64,000 nucleotides of DNA from Octopus vulgaris (taxonomy: Eukaryota), in contig OX597815.1 of the NCBI GenBank assembly GCA_951406725.2, positions 67,952,001 to 68,016,000 of the forward strand, given 5' to 3'. The notes under the pieces are model-generated. The model was not told the DNA's origin and did not search any database. It saw only the letters and a program-made list of their open reading frames with translations. Both the position numbers and the translations under genes were made by a program. Position 1 is the stretch's first letter. Each line of letters starts with the position of its first letter. Positions 18,844-59,284 of the stretch are shown piece by piece.

Positions 18844-21800
18844 GCTTGTATATATGTCTATATAACAACCTGATAGTCAATCGATCTATTCATCTTTCTA
18901 TTTTTATCTAAATATCCATCTATCTTCCCCCCCTCTCTCTCTCTTTTTCTATTGTTCTCTCCCCTTCTACCTCCGTTTCTCTCCCTCCTTCTCACTCTTT
19001 ATCACTCTATCTATAGATCCATCTATGTATCTATGTATCTATTTAGCTATCTATCTTTTTATCTATCTATCCCTCCATCCATCTATCCATCTAGCTATCT
19101 CTCTAAATATCTCCTTTTCATATTCTTCCTTCGCGATATTCAACTTGCCACGCACTGATATTTGAAACTATTATAGGAATGAAAAGAACCATAAGAATAA
19201 TGGAAATGACAACAACAACAATGCTAGGAGCAACAAAAATGGTGATATTCTCTGTTCCCATAACATGCATTTACTCGATTCCAAACCGTCATTCCTCTCT
19301 ATGTATTCCTTGTAGTCTTCATTTTTTTTTCAACACATTGGTTATATATACGTTTTATATATGTTTTCCACAAATTTTCAACTCATGATTTTGCCACATG
19401 GTGTATAATGAATCTCCAGTATTTTTGCTCCTTTTATATATTTTTATATTTCTACTATTTGCCTCACGCTGTACACAAAATGCCTGCGAAACCAACTCTA
19501 CCTCATCGGATTAAATTACCAACGAGGACATCCTTAAGGAATTAAAAGAAATCAACACAAATTTAGTCACTCTAACCAACAAAATCGATGGAGACGACTT
19601 AGAAAACTTTCAAAGAAAGTAATCTACAGAGAAGGTCAGTCAAAATCTTAGTGAACTATGCACTACATTAAACTAATTCTTTACCAACATTTTCACAAAC
19701 AATACCATAAAAGATACACTACAAAAATCACCCACCCCAAATGAAAACACACCAATTTCAGCATACCTAATTAAAAACCGCATTAGTCACACTTGGTCCA
19801 AAAACCTCAACACCAGAAAACTCTCATTCTGGAACGTGATAAAAAAATAACAATAAGGCAAAAATATATGAAAAATGGATCACTTCAACACCATTAATCT
19901 TGCCATGCAAACTCCAAATCAAACCCATCCCAGATGAACCAGAACAACGCAATTATACCACCCAAAGGAAGGAATAAAACACTAGACGACTTCTGCAACC
20001 GTATCCAGAATTTTACCCACACTATCTATAGACCAAAAATTGTACCTAACTTCAACAACCTACAGCGGAAGCACCTACTACAGCTAAAAAGTGACAAAGA
20101 CCTGACAATCAAAGAAGCAGACAAAGATAGTGCTGTAGTCCTGATGGACACAGAATGCTATAAAAATGAGAAGAGAGAGTGAATTACTTAAACTCAGAGC
20201 TAAGAATCATGAACAAAAATATAAAATTGATATATATAAATATATAAATATATATATATAAAATATAAAATATAAAATCGATGATGCGATGATCACAGAA
20301 CTCACGATACATACCAGTGAACAACTTCTACAAAATGTTATTAAACTATGGAAAGACGACTGTGAATCGGAAGAAAATATTTCACTACAACGGTGGGAAA
20401 ACAATATCAATTTTTTCCTCAACTACGAATCTCAATTCAAAAAAGACTACACCTCAGACAACCCCTTTTTTAAAAGAAATCCAAAACAAATACATCCACA
20501 GAAACCAATAATCGTACATCCAGATCAAACTCCAACACAGACATACAAAACTACCCCACCACTGGAAAATCAACCACCACCAACCTTACAATAGGAACCC
20601 TCCATTCATAGGAAACACCAGTAAGAACCACCCATTAATAGAAAACACCAGTAAGAAACACCCCATGACTAGGAAGAATAATAATAACAATTATTATTTC
20701 AATTCTTTCCCTCCAACAACTAGAAACAGACAGGGGGTCCTACCTACTCCTCAACATAGGAATTCAACTACTATTTCACCCAGACAAAAAGAACATCTTC
20801 ACAGCGCCCCATACAGGGCCAAACACCCCTACAACTCATTCCAACATAAACACCCACACTATATAATCCCAACTAATTCACCTACACAACAATACTCCCA
20901 CAATAACAACCCTAACACTGAGAACCCCCTTCCGACCTAATTACAACAAACAACATTTTTTTAGACGGAGTAGAGAGACACAGGGACACACGTTGGAGCA
21001 TAACTTACGGGAGAAACTCAAAACATTCAACTTATCTAAGAAAACTCTCTCCACAACAAAAATCCATATTTTAGCTAAAGGTTCAAAATTTACCCCCCAC
21101 TCCACGTAGACCCAACTCCAATGAAATTAAAGATAATATTGCAGAACTCTGTAGAAAACTTCGATTGACAGAAGCACCAACCAACTACAACAACGATGAC
21201 GAATCACTAGTGAAAAACAAAAGCAATTATCTACCACCCAAAGGAAGGAATAAAATACTAGACGACTTCTGCAACCGTATCCAGAATTGTCCCCACACTA
21301 TCTATAGACCAAAAATTGTACCTGACTTCGACAACCTACAATGGAAGCACTTACTACAGCTAAAAAGCGACAAAGACCTGACAATCAAATAAGCAGACAA
21401 AGGTAGTGCTGTAGTCCTGATGGACACAGAATGCTATAAAAACCTAGCATTGGCCATACTAGAAAATGACATCTTTTATAAAAAAAAGTTGCTAATTATA
21501 GGCAGCAAAAAACATTAAAAGATCTTGCATCTTTAATACTCAAACATGGAAAAGGCCTCACAGAAAAAGAAAAAGACTATATCACAAACTTTAAATGCAA
21601 ACCAAGCCTTTTCTATGGACTCCCCAAAATCCACAAGAGTTAAATAATGCCTGAAAATCAAATCCAGGTCTATCCATAAATAATCCCAACACCAGAAGAC
21701 TTAAAATTAAGGCTTATTATAGCGGGCCCAGCCTGTGAAATTATACTGCCTAAGCAACTTTCTGGACATACTATTGAAACCTTTCCTCAGATACGTTAAA

Positions 21801-23396
21801 AGTTTCATTAGAGACGATCTGGACATGGTAGAGCATCTACCAAAAACCACCAACGAAGAAGCTCTATTAGTCTCCTTTGATGTCATCAACCTCAACACTA
21901 ACATTCCACATGACTACGGAATAGAGGCAATAAAATTCTGGTTAGAAAAATACCCGAAGTTCTCCCGGACCGCTTAAACCATACCATTGTCATTGAATTC
22001 CTGGAGTTCATCCTACAAAACAATTATCCCCTTTCGATGCAACATGCAGTATTGCGATGGGAACGAAAGCAACGCATGTCCTTACTAAGCTAATAATGGG
22101 TTTCTTTGAATCTATCCTATATGAACTTTTGCTCCAAACATTTGGACCCCGATTCCACCAGTATATAAGAGAAAACTGTAAGAGGTACCTAGACGATTTT
22201 TTTAATCATCTGGAATGAAACCTATGATAAACTCCTGGATTTCAAATCCTCACTGAACAATATAAACTCCTATATTCAATTTACAATGGAATATAGCAAG
22301 GAACAGCTCCCATTTCTGGACATTTTGATTATAAAAAAATCCAACGACCAAATTGCAACTGACATCTACTACAAACCAACAGACTCAAAACAGTATCTCC
22401 TTTTCAGTTCATGCCATCCTAAACGCACCAAAATATATATCCCATTCAATCTAGCTAAAAGGATCTGTACAATTGTATCTGACACAACCACGCGGGAACT
22501 TCGCCTACAAGGCCCCAAAATAACACTCACTGAACGTCAATACCCACCCTCACTTATATACCATGGAATTGAACGTGCCAAGAAATTAGACACAAACACA
22601 CTAAGGACAACAAAACAAACACCAAACCTCACTTTAAATCACTCCCATACATATCAACCCACAACCCCAGTAACAATGAAGCATGCAGTACAATTATACA
22701 AAATCTCCCTCTGCTCACTCAAGACCCGAAAATGAACAACATCCTAAATACACATAAACTCTTCAAATGCAAAAGACAACACAAATCACTCATGAGACTC
22801 CTAACAAGTGCAAAAAACTATACTCAATACATACGATACCAGCAGTTAAAAAATGCAGACGACCTAATTGTAGTACATATCCATACCTAACTGAATGCTC
22901 AGAATTCATATTCCAGCAAGGAGAAAAATTCTCAATTAAGGCCAACTTCACATGTGCTTCCCAGAACTTTATCTATGCCCTAACCTGCTCAGATTGTGGC
23001 CACAATTATGTGGGCCAAACGAGTCTTACTTTGAGGCGCATAGTCACGCTCCATAAATAACAGATTCGTTTTCCTCAATACATGCAGATAGCCCAGAGTG
23101 AACATATCGACAGATGCGCAAGAAATAAACGCCGAATTTACATATCTTTCCATTATACCAATGTAAAGATTCACTCTCCTTGCAAGAACGCCTAAACAAG
23201 GAAAACCTGTTCATACAAAAGTACTTCACACCTTATTATACAAACTTGACCACTTCAAAAATTATACTGAAGACTTAGTTGTCCCCCTTGCCACGTGTTA
23301 CCTCCCTTGGTCCACTCTCTAAACTCATTCTTATTTTTCAAGCATCCAAAATGGCGAGACTCCTTTGTCACAAGAATTGATTACTTCACATTGTCC

Positions 23397-23629: not shown

Positions 23630-23670
23630 GTCCTTGAAAAGCTAATTTAAATAGCGAAAACCGGTTGGAT
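23630..23670 (+). ncRNA. Decayed minimal hammerhead of the PLE 3' region
   Basis: GTCC TTGAAAA GCTA ATTTAAA TAGC GAAA ACCGGT T GGAT; helices I and II pair, core CUGAAGA is mutated. Confidence 0.65.
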
Positions 23671-23864
23671 ATCACTACATCCATAAAATATGTATATATT
23701 TTTTAAAATTTCTTTATAAAAAGATATTAAACCATGTGAAACGAAGGCATTTCTCTTCCACTTTTTATATATGTTTTCCACATATTTTCAACTCATAATT
23801 TTGCCATGTGTTGTATACTGAATCTCCATTATTTTTGCTCCTTTTATATATTTTTATATTTCTA

Positions 23865-23924
<60 letters not shown>

Positions 23925-32658: not shown

Positions 32659-32696
<38 letters not shown>

Positions 32697-32705
32697 TATA
32701 TATAT

Positions 32706-35582
32706 CAAGCCTTATGCATAGCACTTACAGAAACGCACCTGAAACCGGACATAGCAGATGCGGAGTTACACATACCACAGTATGCTGTACTACGGACCGA
32801 CAGGAAAGAAAGGAGCCATGGAGGTGTTGCTATGTACATCCGTGAGGACCTCACACCCCAGGTCCTCTTGTCATACTCAAACTCGGTGTGTGACACACTA
32901 ATTGTACATATTAGGCAACTTGATGTAGTTGTGTGTGCTACATATCGCCCTCCAGATGCCCCAAGCCATGTGGGCAAGTTTGAAGACTGCCTTATAAAAA
33001 TAGAAGAAATTCTAACCACATTAGAACAACACATAGGTGTGCTTCTTATGGGAGACTTCAATCTGCCCAATGTCAGATGGCCCGAGGGCCTTTCTCTCCC
33101 AGGAATGACAAGATGTGAACGAGGACAGGCGAGGTCCCTCCTGAACCTCATCAACACCCTGTACATGGAGCAGGTAATACTCCAACCAACCAGGGCAGGT
33201 AACACACTGGATCTCTGCTTCACAAATGACATGGATCTCATCCATAATGTGAAAGTGACACCGACACTACTCTCGGATCACAACATGATAGAGCTGACCA
33301 TGTACGGGCCAAAAGAGAGCACGGACATGCAGCCTACAAGAAACCCTCAAAATCTTTCCAGCTTGAACTACCATAAGGCAAACTGGAAACAAATTGAGAA
33401 AGAGATCCTCAAACAAAACTGGCATAAATGTCTCTCCTCGCCAGACATCGACGTGAAACTTCAACAATTCATGTCTGTAATGCAAGCCATATGCTACAAA
33501 TGTGTCCCAGAGAGAAAGGCCACTGTACACAAGAACAAAATCCCCAGAGAGAGGAAAATTTTTATGAGACGGCGTACGAAATTTTCAAATCGCCTAAACA
33601 AACAGATTGAAAGCAGTGAAAAGTCCCGCCTAAAAATAAAACTGTTGGAAATCGAAAAATGTCTGCAACTCTCCCATGAAAAAGAAAGAGCAGACAAAGA
33701 AGCCTGGGCTATAGAAAACATAAAATCTAACCCCAGAGCTTTCTACAGGTATGCCAAAGAAACAGCTACAGTGCACTGTAGAATAGGGCCACTCCTCGAA
33801 AAGGATGGCACACTTACAGGAAAACCAATGAGGGTAAGTGAAATACTGAATGAGCAATTCAAGAGTGTTTTCACTCCACCCCTTGGGCATCTCCAAATCA
33901 CCAATCCAACTGACTTTTTTACCACTGCAGATATAAAATCAGAGGCGGCGACGATAGATTACATCGATATAAAGGAAGACGATGTAACCAAGGCTATAGA
34001 TGAAATGAAAACAGACTCAGCTACTGGCCCCGATGGATTCCCGGCAATCCTCCTAAAAGCATGTAAGAGAGTCCTAGCAAGACCACTGCAGTTCCTCTTT
34101 CAGAGCTTCCTTGCAGCTGGCAAACTTCCAGGAAAACTGAAGGAAGGTAAAATATGCCCCATTCATAAAGGAGGTAGCAGAGCGGAAGCCAAGAACTATA
34201 GACCTATCTCTCTGACCTCACACATCAGCAAGGTCATGGAACGAATAGTCAGAAGGAAGCTGATCACCTTCCTTGAAGAGAATGACTTGCTGCCCGACAC
34301 CCAACATGGTTTCCGACCAGGGAGAAGCTGTTTAACTCAGCTCCTACAACACTATGACTGGGTGCTGAAACGGCTGCTCAACCACTCAAATGTGGAAGTG
34401 ATATATCTCGACTTTGCAAAGGCCTTTGATAAAGTCGATCATGGAATGATATGTCACAAACTGCGTGATCTCAACATAGTTGGAAAACTGGGAGAATGGC
34501 TTCATGACTTTCTGAAGGATAGAAGTCAGGTGGTAGTAGCCAATGGGGCCACCTCCATTAACACACAAATAGTGAGCGGTGTTCCGCAGGGCACTGTTCT
34601 GGGACCACTACTGTTCATAATGGCCCTCTCAGACATGCCCTCAGCCACGCAGAGAGCCACGATCACAAGTTATGCAGATGATACAAAAGTTTCACAGGCA
34701 ATACAGAACCCTGAGGACACTAAACACCTGCAATGTGAGCTGGACGAAATATACAAGTGGGCTGAAAAGAATAGCATGCAGTTCAATGCTGGAAAGTTTC
34801 AAGCTTTATACTATCAGCATGCAAAACTGAATGCAATACCCAATGAATACACTGGACCCGGAGGGATTGCAATCCCAGAGGCACAATCAGTGCGTGACCT
34901 GGGTATTCACATGAGTGATGACGCGACCTTTCATGTACATGTTGCTAAACTGACAATGAAATGTAGACGGCTGGCTGGCTGGATTTTTAGAACCTTTAGA
35001 ACAAGAGAACAAGAAACCATGATGGTCCTCTGGAAGACACTTGTCCTAAGCCACTTTGACTATTGCTCTCAGCTATGGTCACCATCCAGCGTCAAGTTGA
35101 TCACAGAACTTGAGGCGATCCAACGAAGCTACACAAAGAAGATAGCCTCTATGCAGAATGTAAGCTACTGGGAAAGACTCAAGAGATTAAAATTATATTC
35201 CCTGGAGCGTAGGCGGGAAAGATATGCCATAATATACATCTGGAAGATCCTGGAGGGAAGTGTCCTGAACTTTGGCATCGAGAGTTACGCAAATGCCAGA
35301 ACTGGGCGCCACTGCGTGGTGCCTAGGACTCCAAACCTGCCATCAAGATGTAGGACAAGATTCTGTGATAGCCTGGGCTTCCGAGGCCCACAGCTCTTCA
35401 ATATCCTCCCGAAGAACCTGAGAGACCTGCATGGGGTGGATACAGATGTCTTTAAAATGAAGCTGGATCTCTTCCTGTCAGGTGTCCCAGATGAACCAAC
35501 TTCACGGCAGGAGGGGCAGATGAGGGCAGCTGCATCGAACTCTCTCATGCACCAAATAGCAGTTGCTAGAAAGCCTCCATGA
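32706..35582 (+). CDS. LINE ORF2: APE endonuclease plus reverse transcriptase (frame open from 32706; first ATG at 32832)
   Basis: QALCIALTETH, YRPP, GDFN, SDH (APE); NYRPISL, QHGF, YLDFAKAFDKV, GVPQG, YADD (RT); no stops across 916 aa plus the upstream extension. Confidence 0.95.
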   Translation, partial: QALCIALTETHLKPDIADAELHIPQYAVLRTDRKERSHGGVAMYIREDLTPQVLLSYSNSVCDTLIVHIRQLDVVVCATYRPPDAPSHVGKFEDCLIKIEEILTTLEQHIGVLLMGDFNLPNVRWPEGLSLPGMTRCERGQARSLLNLINTLYMEQVILQPTRAGNTLDLCFTNDMDLIHNVKVTPTLLSDHNMIELTMYGPKESTDMQPTRNPQNLSSLNYHKANWKQIEKEILKQNWHKCLSSPDIDVKLQQFMSVMQAICYKCVPERKATVHKNKIPRERKIFMRRRTKFSNRLNKQIESSEKSRLKIKLLEIEKCLQLSHEKERADKEAWAIENIKSNPRAFYRYAKETATVHCRIGPLLEKDGTLTGKPMRVSEILNEQFKSVFTPPLGHLQITNPTDFFTTADIKSEAATIDYIDIKEDDVTKAIDEMKTDSATGPDGFPAILLKACKRVLARPLQFLFQSFLAAGKLPGKLKEGKICPIHKGGSRAEAKNYRPISLTSHISKVMERIVRRKLITFLEENDLLPDTQHGFRPGRSCLTQLLQHYDWVLKRLLNHSNVEVIYLDFAKAFDKVDHGMICHKLRDLNIVGKLGEWLHDFLKDRSQVVVANGATSINTQIVSGVPQGTVLGPLLFIMALSDMPSATQRATITSYADDTKVSQAIQNPEDTKHLQCELDEIYKWAEKNSMQFNAGKFQALYYQHAKLNAIPNEYTGPGGIAIPEAQSVRDLGIHMSDDATFHVHVAKLTMKCRRLAGWIFRTFRTREQETMMVLWKTLVLSHFDYCSQLWSPSSVKLITELEAIQRSYTKKIASMQNVSYWERLKRLKLYSLERRRERYAIIYIWKILEGSVLNFGIESYANARTGRHCVVPRTPNLPSRCRTRFCDSLGFRGPQLFNILPKNLRDLHGVDTDVFKMKLDLFLSGVPDEPTSRQEGQMRAAASNSLMHQIAVARKPP

Positions 35583-47979: not shown

Positions 47980-50131
47980 ATTAAAGAAGAAGAATGGAAA
48001 GTTGGTAAGGATATAAAATTAATTTGTTAACATACTGCCAAATAAAGACTACTTTCGTTTAAATTCAGTCCAATATATAATTGTAAATTCAAAGATTGGA
48101 ATAAATCCAAAAGTTAGAATAAAATTCCATTTTGAAAATATTGGGCAGAATCTCATCAGGGCTAGAGTACAATAGAAAGAGTTACATGTTGATGGATTGG
48201 GTTTTATCAATAGACTAAGAAAGTTAAGAAATGTATATTTTAGTGTTTGTATGTCTATGCTACTAATCTAAAAAATGATATTAAAAAATTAAAAATATAG
48301 TACAAGGGTAAAAAGTAAAAATGAAAACCAAATAATAATAGATATATAATATAAAGTAAGATAAAAATAAAACCGTTATCTATGTAAATTTCTATTCGTT
48401 TACATAATCATTGTGTATTATGCCTATGTATTTATTATCATAAAATCTTATCGAATCAGATTGATTCGTTTATGTATCTGTGTAGTTTAATTTGAAGAGG
48501 ATAGCCGTTAAAACTATGTATTATTTATATATCTGTATATAAATAACTCCTGTTAACGCGTAGCGTATGAATATGTGTTTGTTTATACATATGTATATAT
48601 CTGTTATATATATGTGTGTATGTGTGTGCATGCGTATAAAAACATTTTTGTATTAAGCAAAAAAAAAAAATTGTGATAATTAATTTTAATATTTTTTACA
48701 AAATGAATTAAAGTTAATCAAGATTATTAAAATAAGAGTTTTATTATTGTTAATAAATTCATGGTTCAGAAAGGGAAAAATTGCATATTACATAGCAGCA
48801 CAGATTTAGTGTATTACATCATCAGATTATGTATTATTGAAAGAACAAGATTATTCCTAACGAAGACTGTCTCTTTACATAGTAATTATATTGCTAAATT
48901 GATCATGTTAATTATTACAATTTCATTTATACAAAAATTACATATTACATGTTTGTACTTTATTACTTCATATTACATTATTTGTATGTATTTGATATAT
49001 AGTCTAGCAATATTAAGAGAAAATATACTTCGAAACGTGTACACAGAATAAACTTTTCATTTCTAGAATTAAGTAGTTGATGTCTGGAAGGTGATATTTG
49101 ATAAATTTCTTCTACACAAAGTTCACATCGCCTGTCATTGATACTATATGGTTTAGCGTGACTCATAATTTTCCATTTAATTTTATAACTCTTAGTATAA
49201 CTCTTATTGCTGTTCTTTATTCTCCAAATGAACTAAGACTTGTATTGTTAATTTTTAGACGGTTCTCAAAACTACTTTCGTGGTTAGCTATTCTTTTCTT
49301 TATAGAACATTCAGTTGCTCCAATATAAAAATAATTATTACTTACAGATTTAACAATTTCCTGATATACCAGATTATTGTGTTTACAGAAATTATTAAAT
49401 TTACAGTTGGGCTTGTTCTTACAATTACAAAATTTATTTTCATCAGCTTTTTATTGATTATAACAAAGGAGTTCTAGTGAGCTGTTTCTCATTCACTATT
49501 TGAAGTAAAATCATCACCATTTGTCATGGCCGATTTATCATGTTGTGTATTCAATGAAAGAGTGTCTATTTTACGATTCTCATAAAAATAATCTAGTTTT
49601 CGGTTGTTAATTGAGGATATAATTCGAAATAGATTACGAGATGAAGAGAACGCTATTCTAATTTTCGTATTATTAATTATTTCACTATATTTATTATTAG
49701 TAAAGTTTTTAGTTATTAATCCACGCAAAGATTTAATTACGTTAGTTTTTATCTGTTTTCCAAAAGGGATAATTTGCCTTATGGTATTATTCGTATCAGA
49801 ATTATGGTTATAGTAATTGTCAGTATTTGTTTTAGTGGAGTTTTTCTTGGCAAATAAAAATGTTTTATTAAAAGCTATTGGGTTAATGGAGGAATAATAA
49901 TCATTAATATCAACTTGCATGAATTTATATATGTCCTTGTTTTCAATATGATTGAACCAACCTATTACCTCTTATGTATTAGACCAAAGTTCCAATCTAA
50001 TCTTATTTCTCAGAACAGTTATAAATTTGTCAATAATAAATTTATTTAATTTCCCGAAGTCTAATTTGCCCGGTCAAATGAATCTCAGTCCTTCTAAATT
50101 ATTCTAGACCTTAATGGAATAAAAGGTTCAG
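47980..50131 (-). mobile_element. Nematis-like PLE, internally deleted
   Basis: Minus: QVDINDYYSSI (RT); FCNCKNKPNCKFNNFC..LVYQ..FYIGAT..RIANH (GIY-YIG); RRCELCVEE..LLNSRNE; hammerhead remnant at 48047-48164. Confidence 0.85.
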
Positions 50132-50166
<35 letters not shown>

Positions 50167-50223
50167 AGAAGGACCATAAAGAAAATTTTGAAACTATATA
50201 TGTACCATATACATAATTTTAAA

Positions 50224-50276
<53 letters not shown>

Positions 50277-50277
50277 C

Positions 50278-51060
50278 AAGATTTACATTGGTGCAACTGT
50301 TAATTTAAATCAACGATACTCAGTACATTTGAACATTTAAGAAATACAGTAAATCTACTTCTCTAGCCAACCATATACACAACCTTGGGAAACAATAGGT
50401 CATACGACATTACTTGATTCATTATTGATTTGGGTCCTCCATGCTAGAGTTAAAATACTCCGTGTTGGCTATGCTTGAAAGAATCAATACAAATACTATT
50501 ACATAATCCAACATAATTATTAAACAAACAACATGAAGTGTTCTCCTCTTGTGTTCATAAATTCTTTAAAACCTTTCGATTTTGCCACAGTAAGACAAGT
50601 ACCTCTGTATAATTTTCTTACACTTTCACTTAAACATAGTTTAGATATGGCATAATCTTATTTAATTAAATTAGTATATTTACCTTCTGTCTTTAATCGT
50701 TATATAACACTTTACTACTTATATTTTCACTCTTCACCTAGCTTAATTATCTTAATATATTTAAATTATCTTCATATATTTACTTTATTTAATCTGTTCA
50801 TTTGCTTTACTTTTATTATATTTTATTTTATTTTATCTTAATCCGTTATATTTCATTTATTCGATTCTAGTAATAACTTAATATTTCATTCATTCCAAAT
50901 GAACTTACACTTTCAATACTATTTTTACATTTCTCTAGCTAACTCTATTTTATATTTTTGTATCTAACTCTATTTAAAGTTAACCCCTGATCTTCTTACA
51001 CCTCTACACTAAAGCCTCTCTCCTAATAAGGAAGTATAACTCCTTCCCCACCACACACCA
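50278..51060 (+). mobile_element. Nematis-like PLE 3' fragment between (TA)n arrays
   Basis: IYIGAT..QRYSVH..STSLANHIHNL..PCWLCLKE..LLNKQHEVFSSCVH. Confidence 0.75.
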
Positions 51061-52001: not shown

Positions 52002-52361
52002 ATACTCATGTATATATGTACAGATATATACACATATACATATATATACATATACAAATATATGCACAGATACATATATAAATATATATATATCTACATA
52101 CATACATATACTTACATATATATATACGCATATACAAACATATACATACATATATATACATACATATGTACATATACATATATACACATACAAAGATAGA
52201 TATATATATACACATATATATATACACATACATACATACACATTTATACAAATAGATATATACACACATATACATATATATATATATACATATACATATA
52301 TACATAGACATATATATACATAGACATATATATACATACATATACTGACATATATATTTAT

Positions 52362-55137
52362 ATCTATTAAATTCTCAAATTTTTCTTCCAAATATCAAAG
52401 GAATCTAACAAAAATAGTCAACCAAATTATTAATTCACCAATAGTACATGTCTTTTCTGATAAAACTGGAAATTTATATTCTATTACCCCAATTCACTAC
52501 CAAGATTTTATCGATAAAGAACTATGTAAATCATATAAAATTACAAACACGTCAAATTTAGAATTGATAAATAATGAACATTGTAAAATTATGTATAAAT
52601 TGGAAGTCGAAGACCGCACAGAAATATACACTCCAAATACACCACACTTCAACTTAAAGGACCACAAATCTGATTTTAATATTAATCCAACTATAAGACT
52701 AATTGGCAGAATCAGTAAAAATATACTTGACCGAATTATATCTATAATGAAGAAAAAAACTCAATTGTAACATTTGGTTTAGCACAGGAGAAGTAATTAC
52801 TTGGTTCCATTTACTACCAAAAAAAACTAACTCGTCATTCTTACAATTTGACATTAATAGCTATTATGCATCTATACTACCGATTATTAAATAAAAATTC
52901 AATTTTATCCAAAAGTCTCTCTGATATTACACCACTTGAAATTGATATAATACTACTAGCTAGAAAAACACTTATAAAATTTAATGAAAAATTATGGTGC
53001 CGTGCCGCAAATAATAATGTATTGGATATTACCATGGGATCTTCTGATTCCGCACAAATTACAGGCTTGGTAGGTTTATATCTGTTACATAAGTCTAGAC
53101 AATGCTTCTCTTTTCTCAAAGGAGGATTATAAAGAGACGATGCTCTCCTGGTTTATAATGGCCGATCCAAAAGAAAAATAGGTAAAATGAAGGAAGAACT
53201 CCATAAATTTTATAAAACTTTGGTTTATCTATTACCTTTGAAGAAAGCAATTGTAAAGCGAATTTCTTAGATGTAACTCTGGACCTCAATACCTCTACTT
53301 ATTCTCCTTTCTATAAACGTAATGAATATCTCAAATATATAAACATTCATTCTAACCATCATATATCATTACTTAATAGCATTGTAAACAGTATATCTAT
53401 TAGAATCTCAGATCTATCCTATAATGAAGAAATATTTAATAATCACGCCAACTATTATAATCAAGCTTTAGCTGCAAATGGATTTAAACAAAATATTAAA
53501 TATATAAAAGATATAAAACTTAAGCTTTATATAGCACAAATGGAACTAAACCAAACTACGCATAATAGTAAACTAAGAAATACAACTAACCTTACCTCTA
53601 ACAACAATATTCAATCAATACAAAAAGATGAAACCTTTGTAAAACATGATAAAAAAAAGAAAATGTTATGGTAGTTATAAAACCAAATATAGTAATAAGA
53701 AAAACACTCGGGAAATACTATGCACATTCCAAAATCAGTGCATAACTATAATAAATGGCCTAGTAGGAGTGAAAATAGGAAAATTATTTGGTGCACGCAC
53801 CCCATTTTCAATAAATGTTAAAAGATTAGCAAAACAGTCAAAAATAGCTTTCCTAATAATCATAAGTATCACCATATATTTAATAGATTAACAATTAAAA
53901 TATCTTTTTCAACATTGCTGAACATAGGATCAATTATCGCCAACTCTAATAGACGAAAACTTAATAAATATAAAGATAGTTTAAGAAATAATAACAACAA
54001 CAATAATACTAGTAATGAAATAGACAATAGTCCTAGAACACTAAATAATACTCAACATAATATTTGTTCAATAGATAACATTACGAGAACACATAGCAAT
54101 ACTATAACAGTAACAAAATCTCAGCAAAATTCCAATAATTATACATCTCAAAGTATCCAATAGGCCTTAGATAATCCAATACCACAATCTAATAACATTA
54201 ATAACTTACAAACAGTAAATATACCTAATTCTATTATAAATGATTCCACAATAAATTCAAATATAGCACCACGCACCATAACAAATAATCATAATAGTAC
54301 TAAAGATTATACCACAGAACAGAAACATATAACTAAATATTGCACATGTAAACATAAAAATCATGTCTTTTTGAAGGCAAATGTAGAAGGTTCAACGTGA
54401 TATGTAAATGCAATGTTACAAAAACTGATAACTCACACAGTATGGTATATATAGGGAGCTCTATTTTAGCACATATACATTCATTTAAACCAAATATAAC
54501 GAGTAACACTACTTCATTGGCTACATATATACACAAACTCAAACAAGAAAAGTTAACTATATATTATCCTGGTCAATCATTGACTCAGCTACACGATATA
54601 CACATAAATCTTCTATTTGCCGTCTTTGTACAAGGGAATCGGTATACATATTATTACATAAACATAATTATTTAATTAATTGCCAATCTGAAGCATTATC
54701 CACATGCAAACATGGGTTTTATGAAACTTTTAAGCACTATAAGAGATCGTCAAGTAAAGAATCATATTAATATCTAATTCTTTTTTATTTTTCATATAGT
54801 GGTATCATAATAATAGTAGGTGTTGACAAGTAAGAAAAAAGAAAATTAAATTTGAATTAATTTGAGTATACACATATTCACATAACATAAATTTTCCATT
54901 GGATAAATGATAGAAATGTCTTCTTGAAATTCGAATCAGTACACCTCTATTGTACAGCAAATTGATTTTAAATATAATAATTTAAATTTTACATTAATTT
55001 ACTCTATATTGTGTCAGTAAACGGCTATATTTACATTTGCATAAAATATAACAATGACATCTTCTTCCATATAATACAAAGTAAGATAGGGGTATGGATG
55101 TAACCCACTATGGGATATCATTTATCCAATATACTTT

Positions 55138-55659: not shown

Positions 55660-58247
55660 AAAACAAAAAAATGAAGAAGTCTTATGCAATAAACAAACTT
55701 CAAACAGAAATTGGAGAGTCAAAACACACAGTTATACACAAACCAAATATCAAACACCAGAATCGGATACAACTACTGTCAAAATGCCAAGAGCAACTAG
55801 ACAAAATCAAAAATATATGAAGAATGACCGGAACAACAGAAGAACCAAACCTCCACATATTAATCCCAAACAAAATTCTACCACTCAGAAAATTACCAAC
55901 ATGAAATGCCAGTGTACATAAAATATTTCACCACAAAAGAGATACCCCTATCCCAAATTCTTTTTTAGGAGAAGATGCCTCCAACTAAATGAAATAAAAA
56001 ATGAAAAAAACACCACCCTTGACGAAGAAAAACTACAGGCACCAAGAATAATCAACAAATCGGCCAAGAAATTAACACAAATGGAAATCAAACTATTACA
56101 AAATGGACTGACTTCCCCCACCCCAAAAGCAGATCAAGCCGATCATATAAAAGACACAGAAGATTTTTGTCGCAAATTGCGTCTAGGAGAGTTTTTCCAG
56201 CATGTAGAATACGAAGAGGAGTCACTAGGGCAAAACAAAAAGAACTTCAAACCACCGCTGGATAGAGGCAGACACTTGGAAGAATACATAACCTGCTTAC
56301 TACGATCAGCCCAGTCAAATATTGCAGAAACGAAGCACAAATACATCTTCTCTATAGACCAACTGCCAGCACTAAACAAATTACAAAAAGACTTCTCAAT
56401 AATCATTAAAAAAGCTGACAAACCTAGAGCAACCGTCACCATGGACAAAAACCACTACAAATATATGATCCTAGAACAGTTGAATAACGAAGGATTTTAC
56501 AGGAAAATCAACAAATGCGAGCAAAAAATAAAGTAGATAAACTGACAACAAAGCACCAAAATAATCTCAACTAAAGGGAATCAATAACTTAACTTTGAAA
56601 TGAAAACCAGTAATTTTTATGGATTACAGAAAGTTCACAAATCCAAAGAAATCTAAAACAGCATAAAATCAAAACTTCATCATATGTCGAAGTACAAAAA
56701 CCGGCAGATTTAAAATTACGACCAATTGTTGCTGGTCCAGCCTCACGCACACAACGTCCAAGCAACTTATTAGACATCATTCTGAAACCCCAATGTAAAA
56801 AAGTGCCAATCAAAGATGATATGAAATTCCTGATCTATATCCCCCCAAAAGTACACCAAGACACAATCTCAGTCAGCTTTGATGTAACAAGCTTATATAC
56901 TAACATCCCACACGAAGTAGGAATTGAAGCGGTTGACTTCTAGATTACAAAACATCTAGATTCCATTTCAGAGAGATTCCCGACAGAGTTTATTTTGGAA
57001 GGGCTCAAATTAATATTGGAGAACAACCACTTCCTCTTTGATAACGAACTATATTTACAAATAAAAGTAACAGCCATGGGCACCAAAGTAGTCCAAACAT
57101 ATGCAACACACGTTATGGCATACCGAGAAACAAAATTATATTCCCAACTGCAGGAAACGTTCAGTCACGACTTCGCTACCTACATTAATAACTGGAAATG
57201 TTACCTAGACTATAGCTTCATCTTCTGGGATAGAAATCAAGAAAACCAGCTAAGATTCCATTCAATCATAAACAAGTTCCATGAAGCAACACAATTCACT
57301 ACGGAATGTAGTAGAAAGGAACTACCATTTCTGGATATCGTTATCATTAAAGAAGAGGAAAATATCAAATTTTTACCTATTTTACAAACCAACACGAATA
57401 CTTAAATTTCCGATCAGCACACCTCTCTCATACTAAAAGGAACATTCCCTTTAACATGGCAATACGCATCTGCACCGTAGTAACACAGCCCACACAACAG
57501 GAAAAGTTTTCATGAACTAAAATGGTTCCCTAAAAGACAAGAATATTCGATGAACCTTATCAATACAGCTATCTCCAAGGCCCAGAACATTCCAGTGACA
57601 ACACGGAGAAAGACAAACCAAAAAAATAAAAAGGACAAAACAGGCATCCCCTTTGTCGTCACTCACAACCCAAGGAACTTCAACATTGTGAAAGCCGCCA
57701 TACAATATCTCCCAATTCTCCAGCAATCTCCCAAAATGAATGCACTCATAAAATAATATATAGCAGATGCCAAACACCAAACCTAAAAAAAAACTACTCA
57801 CCAAGGCGAAATTTACATCTAACACTGAAACAATGTCTGTTAAAAAATTACGGGGTCCCTTGATACAGAACCCTTGATTGAAGAGGATGTACAAATCTCT
57901 TTTAAAAGCAATATTTTCAAAATCAAAGCAAACATGAATTGGAAAACGAAAAACTTAATTTACGGTGCAACTTGCCCACAATGTAAAGAGTACTATATTG
58001 GTACACAGAGTTCGTGTACACAAACAACAAATTAAAGACCCCTCTGTCAGAAAGACCACTTGCAGTGGACACTTCGCATCATGCGGAAAGGGGAAATTCA
58101 CAATCTTACCCTTCTTCAAGTTATGGTCTGACAACAATCATTTTCGGAAGTATAAAACATTACTGAACACATAAAAATGATATTCCAAGTCCACACAATC
58201 CCCAACAAATAATGGGATCTTTTTTATATATGAGGATGGGGTTGCGT
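55655..58247 (+). mobile_element. Second Neptune-like PLE, decayed
   Basis: FCRKLRL, KKADK, LRPIVAGP, FDVTSLYTNIPH, TAMGT, LPFLD, NLIYGATCPQCKEYYIG. Confidence 0.9.
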
Positions 58248-58962: not shown

Positions 58963-59005
<43 letters not shown>

Positions 59006-59008
<3 letters not shown>

Positions 59009-59284
59009 CCTGGGTTTCAAGGGCCCACAGCTTTTTAATATTCTCCCAAAGAGTCTGAGGAACTTGCACAAAGTAGATGTAGCAATTTTTAAATCAAAGC
59101 TGGACATCTTCATGTCAAGAGTCCCAGATGAACCTACCTCACGGCAAGAGGTGCAAATGAGAGTAGCTATATCAAACTCCATTCTTCACCAAGTGCCACA
59201 TATTAGACGAGGTTCGTCGTAATAACAGTGTAGCACAAAACGTCGGTGCGTCAGCATGGCCGCAGCTCTGAGCTGAAACTAGAA

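Follow-up and report, generated by a model that had tools for sequence, protein, structure and literature searches.

The two Penelope-like retroelements that lie in a 64,000-nt stretch of Octopus vulgaris DNA (contig OX597815.1, positions 67,952,001 to 68,016,000; hereafter the window, whose first letter is position 1 and on whose forward strand all features below are given) each carry a slippery heptamer, T TTT TTA, in -1 register ahead of the RT frame. To judge from the sequences of related elements, these two sites are probably the remnants of a conserved slippery heptamer for programmed -1 frameshifting in Neptune-like Penelope elements. Both copies are decayed Neptune-like elements, pseudogenes now that make no RT, and the original prediction, that of a Neptune lineage with two ORFs that employs -1 frameshifting, is supported at the level of the lineage, by the ORF1 of six intact relatives. 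The mechanism is well known from retroviruses and has been hinted at for PLEs in print, and it seems to be little described in the Neptune group.

The sequence TTTTTTAG is located at 20957-20964 in the first element (copy 1) and at 55961-55968 in the second (copy 2), as had been predicted, with the heptamer itself at 20957..20963 and 55961..55967. At both heptamers the RT frame reads TTT TTT AGR (FFRR) and is open through to the conserved N-terminal motif of the RT, namely NLSK in copy 1 (21029; 72 nt on) and NKSA in copy 2 (56054; 93 nt on). The frames claimed for copy 2 were likewise recovered: a TAA at 55919..55921 shuts the RT frame 14 codons before the heptamer, the first ATG in that frame is at 56081, and the zero frame, which reads NSFLGED and resembles the ORF1 ends of relatives, stops at 55986..55988, 18 nt past the heptamer. 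In copy 1 the heptamer lies within a run of seven T's beginning at 20956; the RT frame is closed at 20864 and lacks an ATG as far as 21100, and stops at 20919 and 21072 confine the open part of the zero frame (from 20922).

Across the entire window the T6A string is common (33 on the forward and 32 on the reverse strand); it is rare inside the elements, which are poor in T, with three occurrences in copy 1 and one in copy 2. In the 330 nt before the RT motif, base composition predicts about 0.005-0.006 in-register matches per copy, the empirical T6A rate within the elements being about 10 times the composition rate. Because the string is rare in the T-poor elements and so few in-register matches are expected, the pair of heptamers exceeds chance.

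Copy 1 retains parts of both ORFs between two 109-nt direct repeats (19350..19458 and 23760..23868, 92% identical), which may be remnants of pseudo-LTRs. The 5' part of its decayed ORF1, a helical region in two frames, occupies 19494..19956, where a profile of 19 ORF1 relatives matches 19494-19850 (iE 3e-9) and 19843-19956 (iE 3e-8); tblastn with the ORF1 of L001, L002, L003, L006 and L010 (numbers of the relative loci described below) marks the same part. A 211-nt duplicate of an RT N-terminal piece follows inside ORF1 at 19956..20166, 95% identical to 21232-21442. The 3' part of ORF1 (20259..20955) consists of a conserved helical block and then a P/Q/N/H-rich tail, with frame shifts along it; the profile matches 20259-20804 (iE 1.5e-17), and identity to the L002 ORF1 is 34% over 97 aa. 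This decayed ORF1 did not figure in the original prediction. The decayed ORF2 (21029..23144) encodes a PLE-type RT, the remnant of a Cys linker (22848-22880) and a GIY-YIG domain (from 22965), as found by tblastn and blastx with the intact ORF2 of L002, L003, L005 and L010, and it is interrupted by numerous stops and frame switches. Beyond it, at 23633..23670, is a degenerate core that by eye is like a hammerhead ribozyme, namely the CTGATGA...GAAACCGG motif of L001, L002 and L005; in L002 the core-like motif is present twice, 3.7 kb apart. The core has no Rfam match at the gathering score and folds no better than shuffles, and Rfam marks no family in the whole window. The window is also rich in microsatellites.

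Copy 2 is about 40-45% identical to copy 1 and is truncated 5' by a (TA)n tract, after which a remnant at 55660..55960, whose best frame by composition varies along it, precedes the heptamer. This remnant is probably an ORF1 tail; the ORF1 profile finds no match in it. The decayed ORF2 of copy 2 (56054..58144) again comprises a PLE-type RT and a GIY-YIG domain (from 57952), and 769 relatives match its RT N-terminal part at E<=0.001. The RT of each copy aligns with the intact ORF2s and shows the G.KF and DKG motifs, while the GIY-YIG domain appears as IYA..C..C...YVG.T in copy 1 and IYG..C..C...YIG in copy 2. The CX2-5CxxC linker that joins RT and EN, a feature common to Neptune and Nematis, is reduced to CRRPNCSTY, without its last Cys, in copy 1 and is not recognisable in copy 2, and it is intact in L002, L003, L005 and L010. 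None of six short PLE pieces from the window exceeds the Pfam cut-off; the GIY-YIG domain does so in the relative L003. Among named proteins, those nearest to copy 1 come from Octopus sinensis (56-59% identical), and a relative from that species has FFRR at the same place. Word-index protein searches gave no match for the copy 2 RT N-terminus (against longer proteins) or for the copy 1 ORF1 tail, both weak negatives.

Relatives were collected with a query alignment of 43 RT N-terminal sequences. The loci used were the best 80 of 574 confirmed metagenome matches together with 21 from genome contigs, the latter read as animal DNA mis-binned in prokaryote assemblies; viral contigs gave 33 pattern matches and no confirmed relative. 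Ninety of the 101 loci were anchored at the NLS motif, nine being without the motif and two being dropped as mis-anchored. Across these 90 loci, the 330 nt that precede the RT N-terminal motif contain T6A 20 times in -1 register, with 0 and 3 occurrences in the other two registers, compared with a split of 16/13/3 in the RT bodies (Fisher p=0.009), and T6A density is about six-fold higher upstream (0.74 per kb) than in the RT bodies (0.13). A binomial test with equal registers (p=2e-7) was set aside in favour of this comparison, because the RT bodies are themselves skewed and the test therefore overstates the effect.

In 61 loci the frame is open for 290 codons or more from the motif, and ORF lengths alone served to sort these into 29 two-ORF, 17 single-ORF and 15 unclear loci; one of the first group, L065, was removed, its 'ORF1' being its own RT ORF, leaving 28 two-ORF and 45 classifiable loci. 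In 23 of the 28 two-ORF loci (the exceptions are L006, L037, L052, L084 and L094) the ORF1/RT overlap contains a canonical X XXY YYZ heptamer that is in phase with the upstream ORF and lies in -1 register to RT, and the other two registers give 1 and 3 loci. More specifically, T6A or TTTAAAC is found in 19/28 two-ORF loci versus 0/17 single-ORF loci, and after clustering at 60% identity in 15/21 versus 0/10. Thirteen two-ORF loci have a full ORF2 with both the Cys linker and the GIY-YIG motif, and 12 of these possess a canonical heptamer.

The window copies cluster with six of these loci (L001, L002, L003, L005, L006 and L010; SH-aLRT 93) in a quick, unrooted IQ-TREE tree of 63 rows in which the window rows are long branches and the other rows are unnamed loci, and which does not separate Neptune from Nematis. 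In all six, ORF1 reads through the heptamer in the zero frame and ends just past it, and the first RT-frame Met comes after the conserved NLS motif; the RT frame of intact relatives is closed upstream. Their ORF1s count 405 (L001), 434 (L002), 573 (L003), 193 (L005, where the contig end cuts ORF1), 479 (L006) and 566 (L010) codons, and their slip sites are T6A in four, A AAT TTA in one and the non-canonical T TTT TTG in one.

The signal is conserved at the nucleotide level. TTTTTT encodes 22/24 of the FF pairs that lie in the open RT frame before the motif, as against 39/106 in the RT bodies (p=6e-7 before allowing for related loci), and the slip signal is conserved beyond protein need. The distance from heptamer to NLS motif varies from 54 to 300 nt. 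In L005, whose ORF2 is intact over 789 codons, the homologous T6A has changed to TTTTCTA, yet A AAT TTA occurs 6 nt upstream in the same register. At the protein level, FL lies 12-14 residues from the C-terminus in 11/18 ORF1 homologues (L001 and L002 are two of the 11), and of 45 RT proteins with at least 25 residues before the motif, 12 show FF followed by a residue whose codon starts with A.

The frameshift reading has one competitor of some weight, albeit an unlikely one, in which an in-frame fusion of ORF1 and RT, arising for instance through an extra T, was already in place in both host families, so that FFRR is the relic of an ancestral slip site. Local composition leans this way: a composition score tracks the copy 1 ORF1 tail in one frame to about 20925 and favours the RT frame over the final 15 codons ahead of the site, and in copy 2 it likewise favours the RT frame over the zero frame in the last 15 codons, the score being correct in 87/96 training windows by resubstitution and both copies switching frame often, which makes local frame calls weak. 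The phase of ORF1 at the copy 1 junction is set by a C5 run at 20925..20929 whose length varies among family copies, one base being missing at 20925 in family contigs of all four sequencing runs. Such a C4 variant combined with a six-T run would give the layout of the relatives, and combined with the seven-T run of copy 1 it would give a single fused frame; the 12 indels listed out of 124 do not include the T-run length in other copies. The seven-T run is probably not an assembly error, because one contig from run X18 is identical to 20899-21079. Fused, single-ORF Neptunes do exist: the N-terminal extensions of 14/17 single-ORF loci match the ORF1 of L037, L046, L047, L052, L064 or L074 (E<0.01), and because of these matches the single ORFs look like in-frame ORF1-RT fusions. 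However, the C4 form accounts for a minority of the depth (11-49%), every one of the closest intact relatives is two-ORF, and the RT frame of copy 2 has its stop at 55919. The copy 2 zero frame, NSFLGED, comes near to ORF1 ends such as NSFL..D.NW and so favours an intact site at that junction. A fused ORF, moreover, has no need of an unchanged TTT TTT A in two families as divergent as these.

A second explanation, already named as an alternative in the original prediction, takes TTTTTTAG for a 3' splice acceptor, such that an intron in the ORF1 region would be removed and an upstream exon joined to the RT frame. Introns can persist in PLEs according to the available part of PMC8557442, and G is the next base after T6A in 14/19 sites of relatives as well as in both window sites. 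The remaining 5/19 T6A sites, however, are followed by A, C or T and are without AG, as are the loci that use TTTAAAC, TTTAAAT or TTTTTTG, and the preceding 30 nt are not rich in pyrimidines (fraction 0.33-0.70). When GTRAG donors were sought in eight T6AG loci, 0/7 were in phase and four loci had none, and no GT..AG joint occurs among the 15 listed of 126 contig joints. Splicing is disfavoured and highly improbable.

Slippage in transcription, whereby RNA polymerase or the element's own RT would add one base on the T run, is just as improbable; copy 1 does have seven T's and homopolymer lengths do vary among family copies, but nearly all relatives have six T's, a short run for polymerase slippage, and TTTAAAC and AAATTTA suit tandem tRNA slippage rather than a homopolymer mechanism. 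Least probable of all is that the heptamer is a by-product of a conserved Phe-Leu end of ORF1 and that ORF2 has a start of its own at a near-cognate codon or an AUG farther downstream. In favour of this, ORF1 C-termini share a short conserved FL..D.NW motif, an RT-frame Met precedes the NLS motif in some relatives (L064, L071, L074, L080, L094 and P0162), and L037 and L052 are two-ORF without a canonical heptamer. Against it, the codon choice is nearly fixed (TTT TTA, with T before), the RT frame is open from heptamer to NLS over the whole 54-300 nt, heptamers of differing sequence mark the ends of unrelated ORF1 types (helical and esterase), and the first AUG in the six closest loci would remove the NLS motif.

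Under programmed -1 frameshifting, ribosomes would translate the upstream ORF1 as far as the heptamer, where a fraction of them would slip back one base into the RT frame and yield a minority ORF1-RT-EN fusion. Most ribosomes would stop a few codons past the heptamer and release ORF1 alone, a product that is likely structural. Both octopus-like families presumably used the heptamer in this way while they were active.

A downstream hairpin or pseudoknot, which the original prediction had proposed to look for, did not emerge as a conserved stimulator from fold z-scores, a crude pseudoknot and hairpin search and single folds. Mean MFE fold z at 30 sites was -0.13, as compared with -0.33 for 57 controls, with no group-wide signal. 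In the crude search a hairpin ranked in the top tenth of shuffles (rank <=0.1) at 9/33 sites and a pseudoknot at 3/33, neither being in the window copies.

The ORF1 of the window clade is predicted by structure modelling to form long helices, coiled-coil-like, with a disordered C-terminal tail (mean pLDDT 71, pTM 0.47). These ORF1s have no Pfam match above the cut-off and no usable Atlas match, and against the PDB a sequence search gives weak helical-bundle matches and a fold search none at E<=0.001. By analogy with the coiled-coil ORF1 of Athena elements, one may guess at a structural or RNA-packaging role. Two other loci, L049 and L068, have an SGNH-like ORF1 (below the Pfam cut-off).

The two-ORF and single-ORF forms are interleaved on the tree, and the two-ORF label requires three changes. 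It is conceivable, at a confidence that falls somewhat short of even, that the layout of ORF1, -1 frameshift and RT-EN is widespread and old in Neptune-like elements, that the single-ORF forms are in-frame fusions of the same ORF1, and that the slip sites (T6A, TTTAAAC, AAATTTA) turn over and work without strong downstream RNA structure. If this is true, a gag-pol-like expression strategy would exist in the retroelements closest to telomerase, and most annotated Neptune proteins would miss their real N-terminus. Gene callers would yield truncated or falsely spliced models, and builders of consensus sequences who close the 'frameshift' would erase a signal. Should much of the Neptune-like group frameshift, mechanism studies would also be overlooking a protein, with an abundant ORF1 accompanying the minor fusion. 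The intact loci L002, L003 and L010 make a direct reporter test easy.

The retroviral gag-pol slip site of HIV is U UUU UUA, and that between ORF1a and ORF1b of coronaviruses is U UUA AAC. The sites described here share with these systems the same heptamers in the same register, a probably structural ORF upstream and a polymerase downstream. They differ in that no strong stem-loop or pseudoknot was detected 5-9 nt downstream and in that several ORF1 stops abut the heptamer, directly so in L063, L068, L069, L077 and L078; the elements are, furthermore, without protease or integrase.

Among Penelope-like elements, a T6A frameshift is reportedly used by Athena/Terminon PLEs. These EN-deficient elements resemble the window lineage in having two ORFs (available text of PMC6431247), a coiled-coil ORF1 and a frameshift symbol in the Fig. 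1 legend of PMC8557442. In contrast to them, the window copies carry GIY-YIG, 13 two-ORF relatives carry the linker as well as GIY-YIG, and no pseudoknot was found.

An ORF before the RT-EN ORF is also a feature of published two-ORF or esterase-bearing Neptunes. The killifish Neptune repeat.CL27 is described with two non-overlapping ORFs, frameshifting going unmentioned in the available part of PMC12602865, and esterases are known in Neptune-like or Penelope-like elements, again with no mention of frameshifting for Neptunes in the accessible text of PMC5408684 and PMC3905857. The SGNH-like ORF1 of L049 and L068 is similar to these, whereas the ORF1 of the window clade is helical and without Pfam, PDB or Atlas match. 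A literature search found no paper that states -1 frameshifting for Neptune elements, Repbase entries, figures and most subscription papers lying outside its reach, and Fig. 1 of PMC8557442 may already draw a frameshift for Neptune; the legend of that figure says that a frameshift with a pseudoknot can separate ORF1, the clade being unnamed there.

Canonical EN+ PLEs are single-ORF elements in the available text of PMC8557442; the accessible part of PMC6431247 contrasts single-ORF EN+ with two-ORF EN- elements, and a single ORF is likewise described in the parts at hand of PMC3846280 and PMC6515669. The closest intact relatives of the window copies depart from this canonical layout, having two overlapping ORFs. 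In other respects the window lineage agrees with the Neptune clade (Craig et al. 2021, PMC8557442), including a PLE-type RT with G.KF and DKG, a C-terminal GIY-YIG, a Cys-rich linker that is intact in relatives and eroded in the window, a (TA)n neighbourhood and a hammerhead-like motif in relatives. What sets the window lineage apart from the Neptune clade as published is a separate zero-frame ORF1 that runs over a slippery heptamer.

The proposed frameshift site between the upstream ORF (ORF1) and the reverse transcriptase (RT) ORF varies among the relatives of the two decayed Neptune-like copies. In one such locus, L005 (493-583), the T TTT TTA heptamer is altered at the homologous place, a new A AAT TTA lies 6 nt upstream of it, and a T TTT TTG 30 nt upstream shares the register of both; as judged from sequence, this arrangement is a turnover of slip sites. 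In two other relatives, L037 (2826-3390) and L052, the two ORFs overlap by about 550 nt and contain no canonical heptamer in the -1 register. A short D-H/R-N-W motif, which lies a few codons 3' of the heptamer and is read in the zero frame, is conserved in the ORF1 homologues P0174-P0191 and could be a protein motif or could hide an RNA signal.

The content of the ORFs is also variable. Two elements that encode the GIY-YIG endonuclease carry a NADAR domain in ORF1 (Pfam, above cut-off), namely L068 (388-1890), which has an SGNH-like part as well, and L071 (246-2231); in both, ORF1 ends in TTTAAAC followed immediately by a stop. Five further loci (L042, L050, L075, L077 and L078) retain ORF1 and a slip site, and are probably endonuclease-less members: their RT ORFs end at 603-621 codons and contain no linker or GIY-YIG motif. 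Another 21 Penelope-like loci (L081-L101) were found in prokaryote genome records, where they most likely represent contamination from a host animal.

Within the octopus window, a 211 nt piece of the RT N-terminus has been duplicated within copy 1 (21232-21442 and 19956-20166, 95% identical), the latter lying within ORF1 and adjoined by a TA-rich tract. An intact LINE ORF of 963 codons with endonuclease and RT domains (32691-35582, forward strand) possibly belongs to a young element; a 3' fragment of a similar LINE is present at ~59000-59270.

Two decayed Penelope-like elements of a type other than copies 1 and 2 are located at 52324-54750 (forward strand), a short distance upstream of copy 2, and at ~48200-50600 (reverse strand). 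Both possess asparagine-rich stretches, a YIG motif and a CxC-type linker, which resembles the Hydra clade linker as presented in PMC8557442.
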